Source: Spirochaetota bacterium
GTDB lineage: Bacteria; Spirochaetota; Spirochaetia; SZUA-6
Assembly (NCBI GenBank): GCA_013151965.1
Contig: JAADHF010000112.1
Coordinates: forward strand, 29,668 to 93,667
DNA length: 64,000 nucleotides
Direction: 5' to 3'
Below, piece by piece: positions 5,684 through 14,368 of the stretch. The notes beneath the pieces were generated by a model. That model saw only the letters and a program-made list of their open reading frames with translations. It was not told the origin of the DNA and searched no databases. Each line of letters begins with the position of its first letter. Position 1 is the first letter of the stretch. The translations under genes and the position numbers were made by a program.

Positions 5684-6370
5684 GTGATTATGTCCAGTAT
5701 GTCAATGTCAGATTTTCATAAAGCTGTTTGCGATTACCGTTTTCTCCTGGAGCGGGGATACCCGGGAAAAGCTTCGCTGAAACTTATAGGGGACAGGTAC
5801 CGGCTGTCTAAAATCCGGAGAAACTGCCTTTTCCGCGGTGTTGTAGATTCCGGAACGGCCTTTAGCAGGAAAAGAAAAATAGTGCCCCTGAAAAAAGCCG
5901 AAGCTGTTGCTGTCGGTGTTGACTGGTATAATACACTGATTACCGTAGAGAGCTATTTAAAAGGCTGCACTCTCTTTATAGCAGATGATGGTATTGTAAG
6001 GGATTCGGCAGGAATACACGGAAGCTACAGAGAAAGCAGGGTCACTGAAAAAGCGGTAAATGAGATTATTAAACATCTGGTAAATTTAAAACCGGACAGG
6101 CTGGATATCTTTATCGATTCTCCTGTTTCATATTCCGGAGTCATGGGAGAAAAGATCCGCAGCAAACTGGAAAACGCCGTTAAAGGGAAATACAGTGTGC
6201 AGCTTGTTCCCTCTGCGGATTACCCTCTTAAAAGATATAGAGGTATTGTAGCATCTTCCGATTCGGTTATCCTGGATTCCGCTGCTGCCGTAATCGACCT
6301 TCCCAGGTTCATACTGGAATACTGTTTTAATTACATTCCGCCTGCAGTTGAAAACCTCAATCTTCCATAA
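5684..6370 (+). CDS. Hypothetical protein, DUF434-like N-terminus plus a NYN/PIN-like (DUF5616-like) C-terminal region
   Basis: The N-terminus FHKAVCDYRFLLERGYPGKASLKLIGDRYRL resembles DUF434. VGVDWYNTL, IADDG and FIDSP resemble NYN/PIN-type acidic motifs. The start codon is uncertain because there are several in-frame ATGs. Confidence 0.45.
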   Translation: MIMSSMSMSDFHKAVCDYRFLLERGYPGKASLKLIGDRYRLSKIRRNCLFRGVVDSGTAFSRKRKIVPLKKAEAVAVGVDWYNTLITVESYLKGCTLFIADDGIVRDSAGIHGSYRESRVTEKAVNEIIKHLVNLKPDRLDIFIDSPVSYSGVMGEKIRSKLENAVKGKYSVQLVPSADYPLKRYRGIVASSDSVILDSAAAVIDLPRFILEYCFNYIPPAVENLNLP

Positions 6371-8308: not shown

Positions 8309-9013
8309 ATGTCCGACAGGAACCCTGTAAGTCTTTCCATAAAGGCGGTAAGGGAAAGGACCGTTCTTCGAAATGTTTATCTATGGATGGCTATCGGCCT
8401 TGCATTAACAGGGGTTGTAGCGCTCGGTTTTGCATCGACACCGCAGCTCGTATTAGCTCTCGTTAAAAACCCGATTCTCTTTTTCGGAATCATAATCGGT
8501 GAGCTTGCCCTTGTATTCTTCCTTTCCGCAAAAATAATGACATTAAGCCCCACTGCGGCGACATTAGGATTTGCCGCTTATGCCGTATTAAACGGTGTTA
8601 CGCTCTCGCTTATTTTTCTGGCATACACAGGAGCAAGTATCGCGTCCAGTCTTTTCATCACAGCGGGAACCTTTGCCGGCATGAGCATCTATGCCGTAAC
8701 GACAAAAAGGGACCTCTCGTCTTTGGGCCATTACCTTATAATGGGATTATGGGGGATAATTATAGCTTCCGTAGTAAATATGTTCTTAAAGAGCAGCGCC
8801 TTGTACTGGCTTCTTTCCTACGGCGGAGTCGCCCTTTTCCTGGGCCTTACGGCATACGACACACAGATGATTAAACGCTGGAGTGACGAACTCGGCAATT
8901 CCCCTTCCGAAGCTGATTTCTTAAGAATTTCTATTCTCGGTGCCTTGAAACTTTATCTTGATTTTATTAATTTATTCCTGTTCATACTTCGCATCTTCGG
9001 GAGAAGAAGGTAA
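8309..9013 (+). CDS. Bax-inhibitor-1/YccA-family membrane protein
   Basis: Seven predicted TM helices, a basic C-terminus and the BI-1 pattern (GVTLSLIFLAYTG, LGALKLYLDFINLFLFIL). The RBS AAGGAGG precedes the ATG. Confidence 0.8.
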   Translation: MSDRNPVSLSIKAVRERTVLRNVYLWMAIGLALTGVVALGFASTPQLVLALVKNPILFFGIIIGELALVFFLSAKIMTLSPTAATLGFAAYAVLNGVTLSLIFLAYTGASIASSLFITAGTFAGMSIYAVTTKRDLSSLGHYLIMGLWGIIIASVVNMFLKSSALYWLLSYGGVALFLGLTAYDTQMIKRWSDELGNSPSEADFLRISILGALKLYLDFINLFLFILRIFGRRR

Positions 9014-9052: not shown

Positions 9053-9241
9053 ATGAAGGTAAAGATTGATGAAGATCTGTGTACGGCATGTGGTCTATGC
9101 ACAGACAGTGTTCCCGAGGTTTTCGAGCTGGGTGATGAATTTGCAACGGTTATAAAGCCCGAAGTTCCGCCGGAGCATGAGGATGCCGTACGTGATGCGG
9201 CTGCCGATTGCCCCGTAGAATCGATTATAATAGAAGAGTAA
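9053..9241 (+). CDS. Small 4Fe-4S ferredoxin (single cluster)
   Basis: 62 aa, with CTACGLC...DCP (Cx2Cx2C...CP), typical of short [4Fe-4S] ferredoxins. Confidence 0.8.
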   Translation: MKVKIDEDLCTACGLCTDSVPEVFELGDEFATVIKPEVPPEHEDAVRDAAADCPVESIIIEE

Positions 9242-9249
9242 GATAAAAA

Positions 9250-9277
9250 CCTGGCCTGTACCGGCCGGGTTTTTTAT
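9250..9277 (+). terminator. Rho-independent terminator after the ferredoxin gene
   Basis: Stem CCTGGCC / GGCCGGG (7 bp, one G-U wobble), loop TGTACC, then T7. Confidence 0.5.
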
Positions 9278-9326
9278 TGTTTTAATTTTCTAAAAAATCA
9301 ATACACTGGGAAAAAGGGGGCTTATT

Positions 9327-10134: not shown

Positions 10135-12051
10135 ATGAAAGATATAAAGGAAGAATTAAGCAGAATAATCGGCTCATCGAATTTTATCAGCAGTATAAGG
10201 GCAGTAAAAGAAAAAAGGGGAGAAAGCGTACTCTTCGGGGATTCCATACGGAAGCTTACCGAAGATGAGATAAAAATCCTTAAAGGTAACGGAAACTACT
10301 GTAATGACTGGTCTTTAATTGCGGTTGTTTATGATTTTAATCCGGGAAAAATCATAAACAGCCTCTTCTTCGGAAAATGTGTTTTGGGGAAATTTACCGG
10401 CGAAACAAGAGATGTTGCCGGAAGTATCTCTCTGCCCACAGGTATTTACAGAAGTACCATAATCAATTCGGAAATAGGAAATGAAGTATTTATTTTAGGA
10501 AACGGCAGTATATCCGGATACATAATAAAAAGCGGAGCTGCAGTTATTAATACGGTAAGTCTATCACATATTGCCGGCGGCTCCTTCGGTAATGGTCTGG
10601 AACTTGCAATCGGAATAGAAACGGGAGGCAGGGAAGTTCTTTCCTTTGCAGAATTGACAATAGATACCGCAGCACGCATTGCAACGGAGAGGGATAACGA
10701 ACAGGTACTCTCCGGCTATAACAGATCTGTTAAAGATTATACGGAAGCTGCAAAGAGCAGTTTCGGAGTGGTGGAAAAAAACGCACGGATATTGAATACA
10801 GTAAGAGTTGCAAATTCCTATATCGGTGATTATGCCGTTATAAATGGTGCGAATGTTATAGAAAATTCTACTATTTTAAGCGGCAGCGGAGAAGAAACAG
10901 AAATAAGCGGCGGAGCATATGTCAGAAATTCGTGTATCCAGTGGGGCTGTTCCGTATCGTCTATGGCAATCGTGGATAGTTCCGTATTAACGGAACATTC
11001 ACATGTGGAGCGCCATGGAAAAGTAACAGAAAGCATCATAGGCCCCAATACCGAAATTGCAGAGGGTGAAGTAACTTCATGTATAGTAGGGCCCTTTGTT
11101 GGTTTTCATCATCAGTCGCTTCTTATTGCCGCAATATGGCCGGAAGGCAGAGGGAATGTCGGATACGGTGCCAATGTCGGTTCCAATCATACATCAAAAG
11201 CACCTGACCAGGAAATCTTCTGCGGGGAAGGAACTTTTTTCGGACTTGGTGTAAATATTAAGTTTCCCTCCGATTTTTCCGCAGCACCTTACAGTATCAT
11301 AGCGACAGGGGTAAGCACACTTCCGCAGAAGGTAGAATTCCCTTTTTCTCTCATTAATGAACCTGCCGCTCATTTTCCCGGCATATCACCGGCATATAAC
11401 GAAATATTCCCTGCATGGGTTCTGTCCGACAATATCTATATGATAAGGCGTAATGAAGGAAAATACAGAAAACGAAATAAGGCAAAACGGACGCAATTTA
11501 TTTATGATGTTTTCAGACCGGATATTATAGACAGGATGATACGTGCACGGGAAACGCTTCTGTCTGTCCGGATAAAAAAGGATATCTATCTGGATAAGGA
11601 TATCAGGGGAATAGGAAAAAACTTTCTTCTGGAGAAAAACAGGGTCAAAGCAATAGAGACTTACTCATACTATATACGGTACTATGCCCTTTCCGGCATA
11701 AAAAAAATGATAGATAAAATAATCGGCAGCGGGAGAAAAATCAGGGAAAGCATGCTGCACGATAAACTTCCGGAAAACAAAAGATGGGAACATGAGCATA
11801 AGATTCTCTGCAAAGAGGGACTGGCAGATAACGGCATTAAAGAAAACCTTAAACTGCTGCTCGAAATGGAGGAAAAAATTGCACGCTCCACCGGGGAATC
11901 CAAGGCAAAGGATGATAAAAGGGGAAAAAGAATAATAAAAGACTACACTGCCGCACATAAACCGGCTGAAGAAGACAGTTTTGTTATCGAAACATGGAAA
12001 AAATATCATAATCTTAGAAAAGAGATAGAAAGCTATGAATTCTGCAGTTGA
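10135..12051 (+). CDS. DUF4954-like protein with a left-handed beta-helix (hexapeptide-repeat) core and a C-terminal helical domain
   Basis: Hexapeptide-like periodicity runs over about 250 aa (IGDYAVINGANVIENSTILSG...IIGPNTEIAEGEVTSCIVGPFVG...VGYGANVGSNHT). The downstream gene overlaps it by 17 nt. Confidence 0.6.
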   Translation: MKDIKEELSRIIGSSNFISSIRAVKEKRGESVLFGDSIRKLTEDEIKILKGNGNYCNDWSLIAVVYDFNPGKIINSLFFGKCVLGKFTGETRDVAGSISLPTGIYRSTIINSEIGNEVFILGNGSISGYIIKSGAAVINTVSLSHIAGGSFGNGLELAIGIETGGREVLSFAELTIDTAARIATERDNEQVLSGYNRSVKDYTEAAKSSFGVVEKNARILNTVRVANSYIGDYAVINGANVIENSTILSGSGEETEISGGAYVRNSCIQWGCSVSSMAIVDSSVLTEHSHVERHGKVTESIIGPNTEIAEGEVTSCIVGPFVGFHHQSLLIAAIWPEGRGNVGYGANVGSNHTSKAPDQEIFCGEGTFFGLGVNIKFPSDFSAAPYSIIATGVSTLPQKVEFPFSLINEPAAHFPGISPAYNEIFPAWVLSDNIYMIRRNEGKYRKRNKAKRTQFIYDVFRPDIIDRMIRARETLLSVRIKKDIYLDKDIRGIGKNFLLEKNRVKAIETYSYYIRYYALSGIKKMIDKIIGSGRKIRESMLHDKLPENKRWEHEHKILCKEGLADNGIKENLKLLLEMEEKIARSTGESKAKDDKRGKRIIKDYTAAHKPAEEDSFVIETWKKYHNLRKEIESYEFCS

Positions 12052-14368
12052 AATCAGGGCACTTGAAAAATCAGGGCATAAACTTAAGTACAGTCCGACA
12101 GAAAAAACAGGTGTTATAACGGTAGATAATTTTCCCGAACTGGGAACATTAACAGCATTAAGATTCTTGGAATGGGTGCAGAAAAACCCGGGCGGTGTAG
12201 TATCCCTGCCTACAGGCAAAACCCCCGAGTATTTTATAAAAGAGGTCAGAAGGTTAAAAGAAGGCTGGGAAAGCAGCTCCGTAAAAAAAGAACTCGAAAA
12301 CCGGGGAATAGACCCGTCTGTAAAACCGGACTTTAAAAGCCTCTGCTTTGTTCAGATAGATGAATTCTACCCGATAAGCCCTCTGCAGCATAACAGTTTT
12401 TACTACTATGTCAATGAGTTCTACATTAACGGTTTCGGACTCGATCCCGGAAAAGCTCTTCTTATAAACTGCAGCGAAATAGGCCTTCCCGAAGGAAAAC
12501 AGATGGAAGACATCTGGCCGGCGGGTAAAGTAGATCTGTCTCTGCGCTGCCGGGCTCCGGAAAGCAAAACGGAAATTCTGCAGAAGGAAACACTGTACAA
12601 AATAGACCAATGGTGCGTCGAGTACGAAAACAAAATACGTTCGTCAGGCGGAATAGGTTTTTTCTTAGGAGGCATAGGCCCTGACGGCCATATAGGATTT
12701 AATGTCCGCGGGTCGGATTTCTACTCCACAACACGTCTCGCCGGAACAAATTACGAAACACAGGCGGCTGCAGCTACCGACTTAGGCGGAATAGAAGTTG
12801 CCAGAAACCGGCTTGTCATTACCATCGGGCTTTCCACAATCACTTTTAACCCTGAATGTACTGCCATAATCATTGCAGCAGGAGACGCCAAAGCTAAAGT
12901 TATTGCAGATGCAGTTCAGAATAAAATGAATGTGGTATATCCTGCCACTGTCCTTCAGAAATTACCCAATGCACGTTTTTTCTTAACCAGGGGTGCATCC
13001 GGACTTTTAATAGAACGCAATGTAAAGTCATTCACCGAAAAAAGAGAACCGAAAACAGATGAAATAGAAAAAATCATAATCGACCTTTCCGCAGAAAAGG
13101 GCAAACCGGTCTCACAGCTTGTTCCCGAAGATTATAATGCTAATTCTCTGGCAAAAGCTCTATACAGAAGATATCCGGAAAAAATAAAAACATTTCAGGA
13201 TCGGACAATACAGGACCTTAAAGCTAAAATCGCACGGGGAACAAAAATAAACAGCGGCAGGGTATTCCTCCATACCGAACCGCACCATGATGATCTGATG
13301 CTCGGCTACCTTCCGTTTATAGTACGTCATATAAGAGACCACAGCACGCGGCACTACTTTACAACCCTGACAAGCGGTTTTACATCGGTTACCAATAAAT
13401 TCATGCTGAATCAATTAAAAAATCTCAAAGAATACATTAAAAAGGGATACTTTAACCGGCTATTCCGAACTAATTACTTCGATTCTGATAACGTCGAGGG
13501 GAAAAACAGGGATGTATGGCAGTACTTAGACGGTGTTGCTGCAGACTCGGAAGACATGAAACATGAGGGAGAATTAAGGCGTCTTACACGGAATCTTATC
13601 CATATATTCAATGAAAAGGAACTGCAGCAACTTGAGTACCGGATAGACGAACTTATAAACTATTTTAACACGCAATACCCGGGGAAAAAGGATATTCGGC
13701 ACATTCAGCTCTTAAAAGGGATGAGCAGGGAGTGGGAAGCAGACTGCCTCTGGGGATATTTCGGCTGGCATTCGGATTCTATTTTTCATTTAAGATTAAG
13801 CTTTTACAGGGGTGATATCTTTACAGAGGAACCTACCGTAGAGGGTGATGTAACCCCTGTCCTTAATCTTTTAAAAAAGATTAATCCGGATATTGTTACA
13901 GTGGCATTCGATCCGGAGGCAAGCGGACCGGACACTCACTACAAGGTACTCCAGGCGGTTACGGAAGCCTTAAAGCTTTACGAAAAGGAATCCGGCCGTT
14001 CCGATATAGAAATAATCGGCTACAGAAATATCTGGTACCGGTTCCACCCCTCGGAAGCGGACATCTTCGTGCCCGTTTCGCTTAATATGTTTTCTCTCCA
14101 GTCCAATGCCTTTTTAAACTCCTTTATAACTCAAAAAACCGCCTCTTTCCCCAGTTACCTTCATGACGGGCCGTTTTCCGAACTGGCTCAGAAGATACAG
14201 GTAGAACAGTACCAGACGCTTAAAACCTGTCTCGGAAGAGATTTTTTTAACAATCACAGAGTTGCACTTATGCGTGCAACACGGGGAATGGTATTCCTGA
14301 AGAAGATGAGTTTAACGGAATTTTACCGGTACTCACGGGAGCTGAAAAAGGGAACAGAGAATAGATAG
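12035..14368 (+). CDS. Fusion protein: NagB-like sugar-phosphate isomerase/deaminase domain (N-terminus) plus PIG-L/LmbE-family N-acetylglucosaminyl deacetylase-like domain (C-terminus)
   Basis: The N-terminus has SLPTGKTP, FVQIDEF and GGIGPDGHIGFN, which are NagB motifs. The C-terminus has HTEPHHDDLMLGY (the PIG-L PHxDD motif), with further H/D residues downstream. Length is 777 aa. Confidence 0.7.
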   Translation: MNSAVEIRALEKSGHKLKYSPTEKTGVITVDNFPELGTLTALRFLEWVQKNPGGVVSLPTGKTPEYFIKEVRRLKEGWESSSVKKELENRGIDPSVKPDFKSLCFVQIDEFYPISPLQHNSFYYYVNEFYINGFGLDPGKALLINCSEIGLPEGKQMEDIWPAGKVDLSLRCRAPESKTEILQKETLYKIDQWCVEYENKIRSSGGIGFFLGGIGPDGHIGFNVRGSDFYSTTRLAGTNYETQAAAATDLGGIEVARNRLVITIGLSTITFNPECTAIIIAAGDAKAKVIADAVQNKMNVVYPATVLQKLPNARFFLTRGASGLLIERNVKSFTEKREPKTDEIEKIIIDLSAEKGKPVSQLVPEDYNANSLAKALYRRYPEKIKTFQDRTIQDLKAKIARGTKINSGRVFLHTEPHHDDLMLGYLPFIVRHIRDHSTRHYFTTLTSGFTSVTNKFMLNQLKNLKEYIKKGYFNRLFRTNYFDSDNVEGKNRDVWQYLDGVAADSEDMKHEGELRRLTRNLIHIFNEKELQQLEYRIDELINYFNTQYPGKKDIRHIQLLKGMSREWEADCLWGYFGWHSDSIFHLRLSFYRGDIFTEEPTVEGDVTPVLNLLKKINPDIVTVAFDPEASGPDTHYKVLQAVTEALKLYEKESGRSDIEIIGYRNIWYRFHPSEADIFVPVSLNMFSLQSNAFLNSFITQKTASFPSYLHDGPFSELAQKIQVEQYQTLKTCLGRDFFNNHRVALMRATRGMVFLKKMSLTEFYRYSRELKKGTENR

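Follow-up and report, generated by a model that had tools for sequence, protein, structure and literature searches.

UDP-N-acetylglucosamine (hereafter UDP-GlcNAc) is essential for peptidoglycan and lipid A, and GlmU, which combines an N-terminal uridylyltransferase domain with a C-terminal acetyltransferase domain, is pursued as an antibiotic target. Derepressed NagB, the glucosamine-6-phosphate (GlcN-6-P) deaminase, can reportedly substitute for GlmS in Escherichia coli. In a survey of 12,939 genomes, the canonical UDP-GlcNAc pathway was found in no organism of the Fibrobacteres-Chlorobi-Bacteroidetes (FCB) group or the Spirochaetes, as GlmS or GlmU was missing (PMC7725333), and Tannerella forsythia lacks both glmS and glmU (PMC5790795). 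Furthermore, the GlmU N-domain occurs alone in some bacteria, e.g. a planctomycete, "suggesting an unidentified acetyltransferase" (bioRxiv 10.64898/2026.06.23.733835). Here we analysed a stretch of 64,000 nucleotides from the genome of a Spirochaetota bacterium (contig JAADHF010000112.1; hereafter the window), which encodes a DUF4954 protein at positions 10135-12051 of the forward strand. DUF4954 is present in phyla reported to be without the canonical pathway, and we tentatively propose, with a probability of roughly 45%, that it N-acetylates a glucosamine phosphate with acetyl-CoA, in concert with NagB or GlmS.

The gene is an uninterrupted reading frame of 638 codons, and the identical deposited protein is annotated as "DUF4954 family protein" on a 103-kb contig of a Spirochaetes metagenome-assembled genome. 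Residues 39-477 match Pfam DUF4954 (PF16314) at E 1.1e-54, with a score of 186.2 bits where the cutoff is 26.2; the Hexapep_GlmU score is likewise above its cutoff (28 vs 23.3 bits), and residues 252-312 show weaker matches to hexapeptide domains from GlmU and eIF2B-epsilon. No NTP_transferase match was obtained in Pfam and residues 1-60 form short helices, so that an N-terminal uridylyltransferase domain is lacking, and TIGR03992 (Arch_glmU) reached 21.4 bits against a cutoff of 292, in the generic beta-helix region only. DUF4954 is a catalogued but uncharacterised family, and its member in the window is outside the GlmU family because of the missing uridylyltransferase domain and the scores under the family cutoffs. 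A profile search recovered 2477 clusters at the 50% identity level (E-value up to 1e-3), and members are found in no fewer than 12 phyla. The minimal genome of Treponema pallidum, the agent of syphilis, has an annotated DUF4954 gene, which adjoins lgt in a published gene listing; a literature search on TP0851, on amino-sugar genes of T. pallidum and on a beta-helix GlcN-6-P acetyltransferase from bacteria returned nothing functional.

The DUF4954 gene starts 16 nt behind nagB, and its stop is overlapped by 17 nt by the start of a 777-aa gene, beyond which the genes lie on the opposite strand. A preliminary description made from the sequence alone had placed the DUF4954 gene between two deaminase genes in a putative operon for amino-sugar deacetylation and deamination. 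The upstream gene indeed encodes a bona fide NagB (TIGR00502, 328 bits vs a cutoff of 237, E 4e-98), which retains the catalytic residues D72, D141, H143 and E148 and the allosteric-site residues S151, R158, K160 and T161 of the E. coli enzyme. In the downstream protein, similarity to NagB is limited to a divergent N-domain (PDB E 4e-17) with two large insertions and valine in place of E148, and its residues 376-777 gave no match in Pfam (E up to 1) or, by sequence, in the PDB (E up to 10). Of the proposed operon, the shared location with nagB-type genes thus stands, and the deacetylation step is unconfirmed. A PIG-L/LmbE deacetylase, tried for the C-terminal domain of the 777-aa protein, was unsupported by the Pfam and PDB searches, only a "PHHDD" motif resembling that family, and the 777-aa gene is confined to four close Spirochaete relatives (L002, L003, L009 and L014). 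The remaining window neighbours are housekeeping genes (proS, eno (enolase), recX, gatA/gatB, folE2 and a UvrD-family helicase gene), and neither nagA, glmS, glmU and glmM (E. coli protein queries) nor a sugar transporter was detected in the 64 kb.

A neighbourhood scan with one genome per species provided 388 confirmed relatives, of which the best 80 loci were studied. These belong to Spirochaetota, Calditrichota, Sumerlaeota, Krumholzibacteriia, Latescibacterota, Eisenbacteria, Planctomycetota, Omnitrophota, Gemmatimonadota, Fibrobacterota, Auribacterota, Elusimicrobiota and others. Of the 76 loci that offered sufficient upstream sequence, 57 encode a canonical 263-aa NagB immediately upstream of DUF4954 in the same orientation, representing at least 12 phylum-level lineages, and several additional loci contain a NagB within 5 kb of DUF4954. 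The linkage of homologs to nagB-type genes, on which the preliminary description had made its functional inference depend, therefore extends over many phyla and is not a product of chance. Unbiased clustering of neighbouring open reading frames (ORFs) identified a ROK-family gene (approximately 15 loci) as the sole other widely conserved partner. Across phyla, the DUF4954-linked NagBs share 49-93% identity with the window NagB, and the four that were aligned (window, L004, L015 and L047) have in common a C-terminal tail (YYNWVRDNKHMV... / YYNWVRDNKHMVxKxxGR) that is absent from E. coli NagB. This tail of about 20 codons could be a docking element for DUF4954. Two longer representatives scanned for NagB-DUF4954 fusions (P0244 and P0189) contain no NagB domain. 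Among loci L001-L085, queried with E. coli GlmS, GlmU, GlmM and NagA, a full GlmS outside the giant-protein loci described below was found only in L077, and NagA only in L084.

DUF4954 is also fused to GlmS-like modules. The best 150 clusters of the profile search include seven giant proteins (2600-4000 residues) with a complete DUF4954 module; the module of P0137 and the window protein share 44% identity over 629 residues and are near-identical in the core. Five giants were scanned, and in four of them the N-terminal half contains class II glutamine amidotransferase and/or SIS domains, with GlmS/GFAT as best matches (PDB E 7e-17; NCBIfam glmS under its cutoffs, E 1e-41 to 1e-44). The giant genes are located on bacterial contigs in a conserved cluster of ATP-binding cassette (ABC) sugar permeases, (NagA), a ROK regulator/kinase, a GH94 phosphorylase, giant 1 and giant 2. 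In locus L082, giant 2 encodes a GlmU-like uridylyltransferase domain (residues 123-342 vs GlmU 22-225, E 1e-9), which is followed directly by a mannitol-dehydrogenase-like Rossmann domain, without a beta-helix, and then by a phosphoglucomutase/phosphomannomutase (PGM/PMM) domain. Between them, these two giants have counterparts of GlmS, of the mutase and of the uridylyltransferase, and DUF4954 therefore stands where the acetyltransferase of GlmU would be, so that all steps to UDP-GlcNAc would be represented. For the second giant of L085 only a weak precomputed PGM_PMM_I match exists, and for that of L084 no family is on record; the scan with E. coli queries returned weak GlmS-like and GlmU-N-like matches in L082-L084, and the accessory modules of the giants are divergent, which calls for caution in reading these assignments. 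The giant proteins of paired loci measure 2600-5000 aa, giant 1 consisting of a GlmS-like module and DUF4954. A short "AGLE/GLE" motif is repeated in P0137, with several copies near apparent module borders, and may represent linkers or polyprotein cleavage sites.

A left-handed parallel beta-helix is predicted for the DUF4954 protein with high confidence. The AlphaFold model of the monomer, calculated from an alignment of 125 sequences whose members are 30-69% identical, reached a predicted local distance difference test (pLDDT) of 96 and a predicted template modelling score (pTM) of 0.94, and supersedes an earlier run with 48 close homologs, in which the pLDDT fell below 40 precisely in the most conserved block. 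In a Foldseek search of the PDB, all 19 top matches were GlmU. The closest characterised structures are the amino-sugar N-acetyltransferases QdtC and GlmU, and further structural neighbours include WlbB, PglD-type nucleotide-amino-sugar N-acetyltransferases and LpxA/LpxD. Together with the Pfam match, the model bears out the DUF4954-type left-handed beta-helix with a helical C-terminal domain of the preliminary description. The hexapeptide periodicity over about 250 residues reported there overstated the sequence signal, which is clean at residues 205-320 (lag-6 aliphatic autocorrelation 0.33) and weak elsewhere (0.10 over residues 60-425, reached by 51 of 2000 shuffles); the length of the helix itself was understated, as it exceeds 250 residues in two segments (62-170 and 211-425).

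Structural neighbours such as QdtC, WlbB, PglD-type enzymes and LpxA/LpxD would also suit an acyltransferase with a different acceptor or donor, e.g. one acting on a nucleotide-linked amino sugar or another amine downstream of GlcN-6-P, with nagB supplying the precursor. WlbA-type sugar-nucleotide dehydrogenases are members of the GFO_IDH_MocA family, and in a Rhodothermales genome DUF4954 directly follows a GFO_IDH_MocA oxidoreductase gene. Similarly, M20 deacylase-type genes are located upstream of DUF4954 in Fermentibacteria-like genomes, as in L093 (L093:15614-17749), where M20 peptidase genes directly precede a distant family member and genes for a GlmM-type mutase and GlmS follow approximately 6 kb downstream. 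We consider such an enzyme unlikely, as NagB is the tightest and most widespread partner and no sugar-nucleotide modifying genes were found in the 80 loci. Furthermore, the fusion partners are exactly the core enzymes of UDP-GlcNAc synthesis, and a single conserved substrate is suggested by the core, which hardly varies between clades.

In the alignment of 125 diverse members, down to 30% identity, approximately 45 positions are at least 90% conserved, most of them within residues 312-447. The family is thus unusually constrained, and even between phyla, homologs keep 50-60% identity with the window protein. Near-invariant are E312, G319, P320, H325, H326, W335, G338, N341, G345, A346, N351, H352, D358, Q359, E360, E365, G370, K376, P378, R439, K443 and R447, and the core motifs GPFVGFHHQ, WPEGKGN and GSNHTSKAPDQE are specific to the DUF4954 family. 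This dense set of polar invariant residues looks like an active site, and a ladder of small residues together with the basic patch R439/K443/R447 provides indirect hints of acyl-CoA-dependent transfer.

In a gapless profile scan along the C-domain of E. coli GlmU, residues 340-395 of DUF4954 place once, on GlmU 374-429 (offset +34), with a score of 17.5 (vs -14.2 for the next best offset) that was reached by none of 500 composition-preserving shuffles. This part of GlmU contains the acceptor and acetyl-CoA contacts N377, A380, N386, K392, S405 and A423. In the same register, DUF4954 loop 349-360 lands on the external loop of GlmU and is of equal length, but few residues are identical, and important ligands are replaced (N386 to H352, K392 to D358 and S405 to L371). 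Aligned with E. coli GlmU by hhalign, the family reached a probability of 83-88% (E 3e-6 to 8e-6), the confident columns numbering only 38 (254-291 vs GlmU 289-326) and the register being ambiguous downstream. The H325-H326 pair falls on GlmU K351/K352 in hhalign, and H326 on H363 in a manual alignment. These two registers disagree, and the gapless scan of residues 318-338 backs neither. The search for a conserved catalytic histidine suggested in the preliminary description thus returned H325, H326 and H352, all 93-99% conserved, of which H352 falls on GlmU N386 and the histidine pair is not reliably placed on H363; a conserved base may be present in one of the three.

The PDB profile relatives of the generic beta-helix part include, besides GlmU, the non-catalytic domains of eIF2B gamma/epsilon, GMPP and GlgC and gamma-carbonic-anhydrase-like domains of complex I. 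DUF4954 might accordingly be a non-catalytic regulator or scaffold that binds UDP-GlcNAc, GlcNAc-6-P or acetyl-CoA and controls or organises NagB and GlmS, comparable to GlgC, GMPPA, eIF2B or Bacillus GlmR. Its linkage to both a consumer (NagB) and a producer (the GlmS-like fusion) of GlcN-6-P is as expected for homeostatic control, and the linked NagBs keep their allosteric site and have the additional conserved C-terminal tail that could dock. However, the approximately 45 near-invariant residues, many of them polar or ionisable, are more in keeping with an active site than with a surface for binding, the conserved region aligns, at low identity, with the catalytic coils of GlmU, and distant members occur that have neither nagB nor glmS nearby. 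A scaffold or regulator, already raised in the preliminary description, remains a live rival, if an improbable one; in that case, the glucosamine-6-phosphate node would still have gained a new element of control.

Gamma-class carbonic anhydrase Cam binds zinc via H81, H117 and H122. A corresponding three-histidine site in DUF4954 (H288, H290 and H294) was considered and rejected, as these positions are only 30-64% conserved in the family, and the similarity to gamma-carbonic-anhydrase-like proteins is confined to generic coils (residues 219-310). It is highly improbable that DUF4954 is a metal-dependent, gamma-carbonic-anhydrase-like hydrolase that replaces NagA in catabolism by deacetylating GlcNAc-6-P to feed NagB. 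The three histidines, which have gamma-carbonic-anhydrase-like spacing to H326, are not conserved family-wide, NagA is encoded in the same cluster as the DUF4954 giant of L084, where DUF4954 is hence no NagA substitute, the fusion partner is of the biosynthetic GlmS type, and the window neighbourhood is of housekeeping character and without a transporter. In addition, we know of no beta-helix amide hydrolase. The window protein has no Amidohydro match in Pfam and its predicted fold is a beta-helix, so that relative to NagA it could only be a non-homologous analogue.

A forward biosynthetic role is favoured because of the GlmS-like fusions, the partner with only a uridylyltransferase, the similarity to GlmU coils and the housekeeping neighbourhood. 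The reverse-direction N-acyltransferase, one of the roles left open in the preliminary description, thus gives way to a biosynthetic N-acetyltransferase at the glucosamine-phosphate node. As such, DUF4954 would act in the cytoplasm as a member of the hexapeptide (left-handed beta-helix) acyltransferase superfamily. It would use acetyl-CoA to acetylate the amino group of GlcN-6-P, or of GlcN-1-P after a mutase, and would do the job of the GlmU C-terminal domain or of eukaryotic GNA1 where canonical GlmU and/or GlmS is absent. In the window operon, NagB would work in the aminating direction (fructose-6-P and ammonia to GlcN-6-P), and in the fusions the GlmS-like module would make GlcN-6-P. The acetylation, being essentially irreversible, could pull the unfavourable amination by NagB forward. 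The analysis shows the fold, the family, the nagB-DUF4954 pair, the GlmS-like fusions and the local similarity to the GlmU site; the acyl donor, the acceptor (6-P or 1-P), the direction of NagB, any NagB-DUF4954 complex and the choice among the candidate catalytic histidines are inferred. More doubtful is the wider hypothesis that NagB and DUF4954 form a widespread, unrecognised, ammonia-dependent route to GlcNAc-phosphate and UDP-GlcNAc that is independent of GlmS and the GlmU acetyltransferase, with DUF4954 as a new class of beta-helix acetyltransferases, possibly complexed with hexameric NagB.

Several observations weigh against an acetyltransferase at this node. For the core (approximately residues 310-450), the PDB offers no relative by sequence; solved structures resemble the protein in sequence only at generic hexapeptide coils, whose profile relatives include the non-catalytic domains named above. 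Neither the gapless scan nor hhalign gives the invariant H325-H326 pair a statistically supported placement on the catalytic H363 of GlmU. Classical beta-helix acyltransferases need a trimer, with active sites at the subunit interfaces, and the DUF4954 model is a monomer prediction. In distant branches of the family, DUF4954 is located beside a GFO_IDH_MocA oxidoreductase, M20 peptidase or HD gene instead of nagB. In L077, a canonical GlmS is encoded 2 kb from DUF4954, and the nagB-DUF4954 pair is therefore not always a replacement for GlmS. Both giants of L082 begin with a signal-peptide-like sequence, and the giant clusters carry catabolic-looking genes (GH94 phosphorylase, ROK and NagA) and resemble a chitobiose salvage locus. 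Lastly, the papers found to mention the family report nothing functional or biochemical on any DUF4954 member.

If the wider hypothesis is true, the NagB-DUF4954 route would explain the "absent" canonical pathway in Spirochaetota (T. pallidum, too, has a DUF4954 gene), the FCB group and many bacteria of the Planctomycetes-Verrucomicrobia-Chlamydiae (PVC) group. The acetyltransferase proposal, if confirmed, would close a gap in the pathway of major phyla from the gut, the mouth and the environment. A NagB regarded as "catabolic" would be reassigned to biosynthesis, and a lineage-specific drug target would emerge. DUF4954 is also a concrete candidate for the acetyltransferase sought in bacteria that keep only the uridylyltransferase domain of GlmU. 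Of the NagB isozymes of B. thetaiotaomicron, BT_4127 is repressed on mucin/GlcNAc and two others are induced (PMC13634575). The repression of BT_4127 fits a biosynthetic NagB; BT_4127 could not be established as a DUF4954 neighbour, and the top 150 and ten low-ranking DUF4954 representatives are all distant from the Pfam Bacteroides seeds (65-161 bits).

Table 1. Features of the DUF4954 locus and of the giant-protein loci. Positions refer to the window unless a locus is given.
Feature	Position	Strand	Residues	Basis or remark
Terminator-like hairpin, 12-bp stem and T run	9245..9284	+		Terminator scan; closes ferredoxin gene, 5' border of nagB operon
nagB, canonical glucosamine-6-phosphate deaminase, 263 aa	9327..10118	+		TIGR00502, alignment with E. 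coli NagB
DUF4954 gene, main subject, 638 aa	10135..12051	+		ORF, Pfam match, structure model
N-terminal helices			4-51	AlphaFold model
Left-handed beta-helix, segment 1	10318..10644	+	62-170	Secondary structure of the model
Helical insert separating the beta-helix segments	10660..10752	+	176-206	Model
Left-handed beta-helix, segment 2	10765..11409	+	211-425	Clean hexapeptide run (205-320) and family-specific core
Most conserved family block	10987..11490	+	285-452	125 diverse members
External loop GSNHTSKAPDQE, 12 residues	11179..11214	+	349-360	Model loop, GlmU alignment
C-terminal helical domain	11416..12033	+	428-633	Invariant basic patch R439, K443, R447 right after last coil
Downstream NagB-like gene, 777 aa	12035..14368	+		Divergent NagB-like N-domain, C-terminal domain of about 400 aa
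Giant pair	L082:10001-17926 and L082:17952-23828			Outside the window
Giants	L084:10001-20029; L085:1586-13564			Outside the window

Antisense "shadow" ORFs opposite the DUF4954 and nagB genes (in the window 11665-12219, reverse strand) recur in many loci; they are an effect of coding-strand composition and not genes. Upstream of the operon, a gene for a 62-aa ferredoxin with a single 4Fe-4S cluster (9053-9241), which is below the 80-aa minimum of the ORF listing, is situated between nagB and a gene for a Bax1-I/YccA-family membrane protein (8309-9013). The latter is syntenic with the nagB-DUF4954 operon in L002, L009 and L014 and not elsewhere, which probably reflects lineage synteny only. 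A gene encoding a DUF434 and DUF5616 protein (5684-6370) lies between a response regulator gene and recX.

Compared with the C-terminal domain of GlmU (EC 2.3.1.157), DUF4954 has a beta-helix in two segments, a helical insert and a 200-aa helical C-terminal domain, and it lacks both the N-terminal uridylyltransferase domain and an established equivalent of H363. YdcK (PDB 2f9c/2pig), an uncharacterised enterobacterial beta-helix protein, shares 17% identity with DUF4954 at an E-value of 0.07, which is not significant; it is without the C-terminal helical domain and gives DUF4954 no functional transfer. QdtC and WlbB are small proteins (190-260 aa) with dTDP- or UDP-linked sugars as substrates, and no sequence similarity to the DUF4954 core was detected in them. 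The regulatory beta-helix domains of GlgC, GMPPA/B and eIF2B gamma/epsilon are the best sequence matches of DUF4954 residues ~200-310, but they come after a nucleotidyltransferase domain and have no counterpart of the invariant polar residues in the DUF4954 core. Eukaryotic GNA1 (EC 2.3.1.4) would catalyse the same reaction as proposed for DUF4954 if the acceptor is GlcN-6-P, and both would then be placed directly after a GlcN-6-P-forming enzyme. In contrast to the beta-helix of DUF4954, GNA1 has the fold of GCN5-related N-acetyltransferases (GNAT), and the two unrelated proteins would at most be functional analogues.

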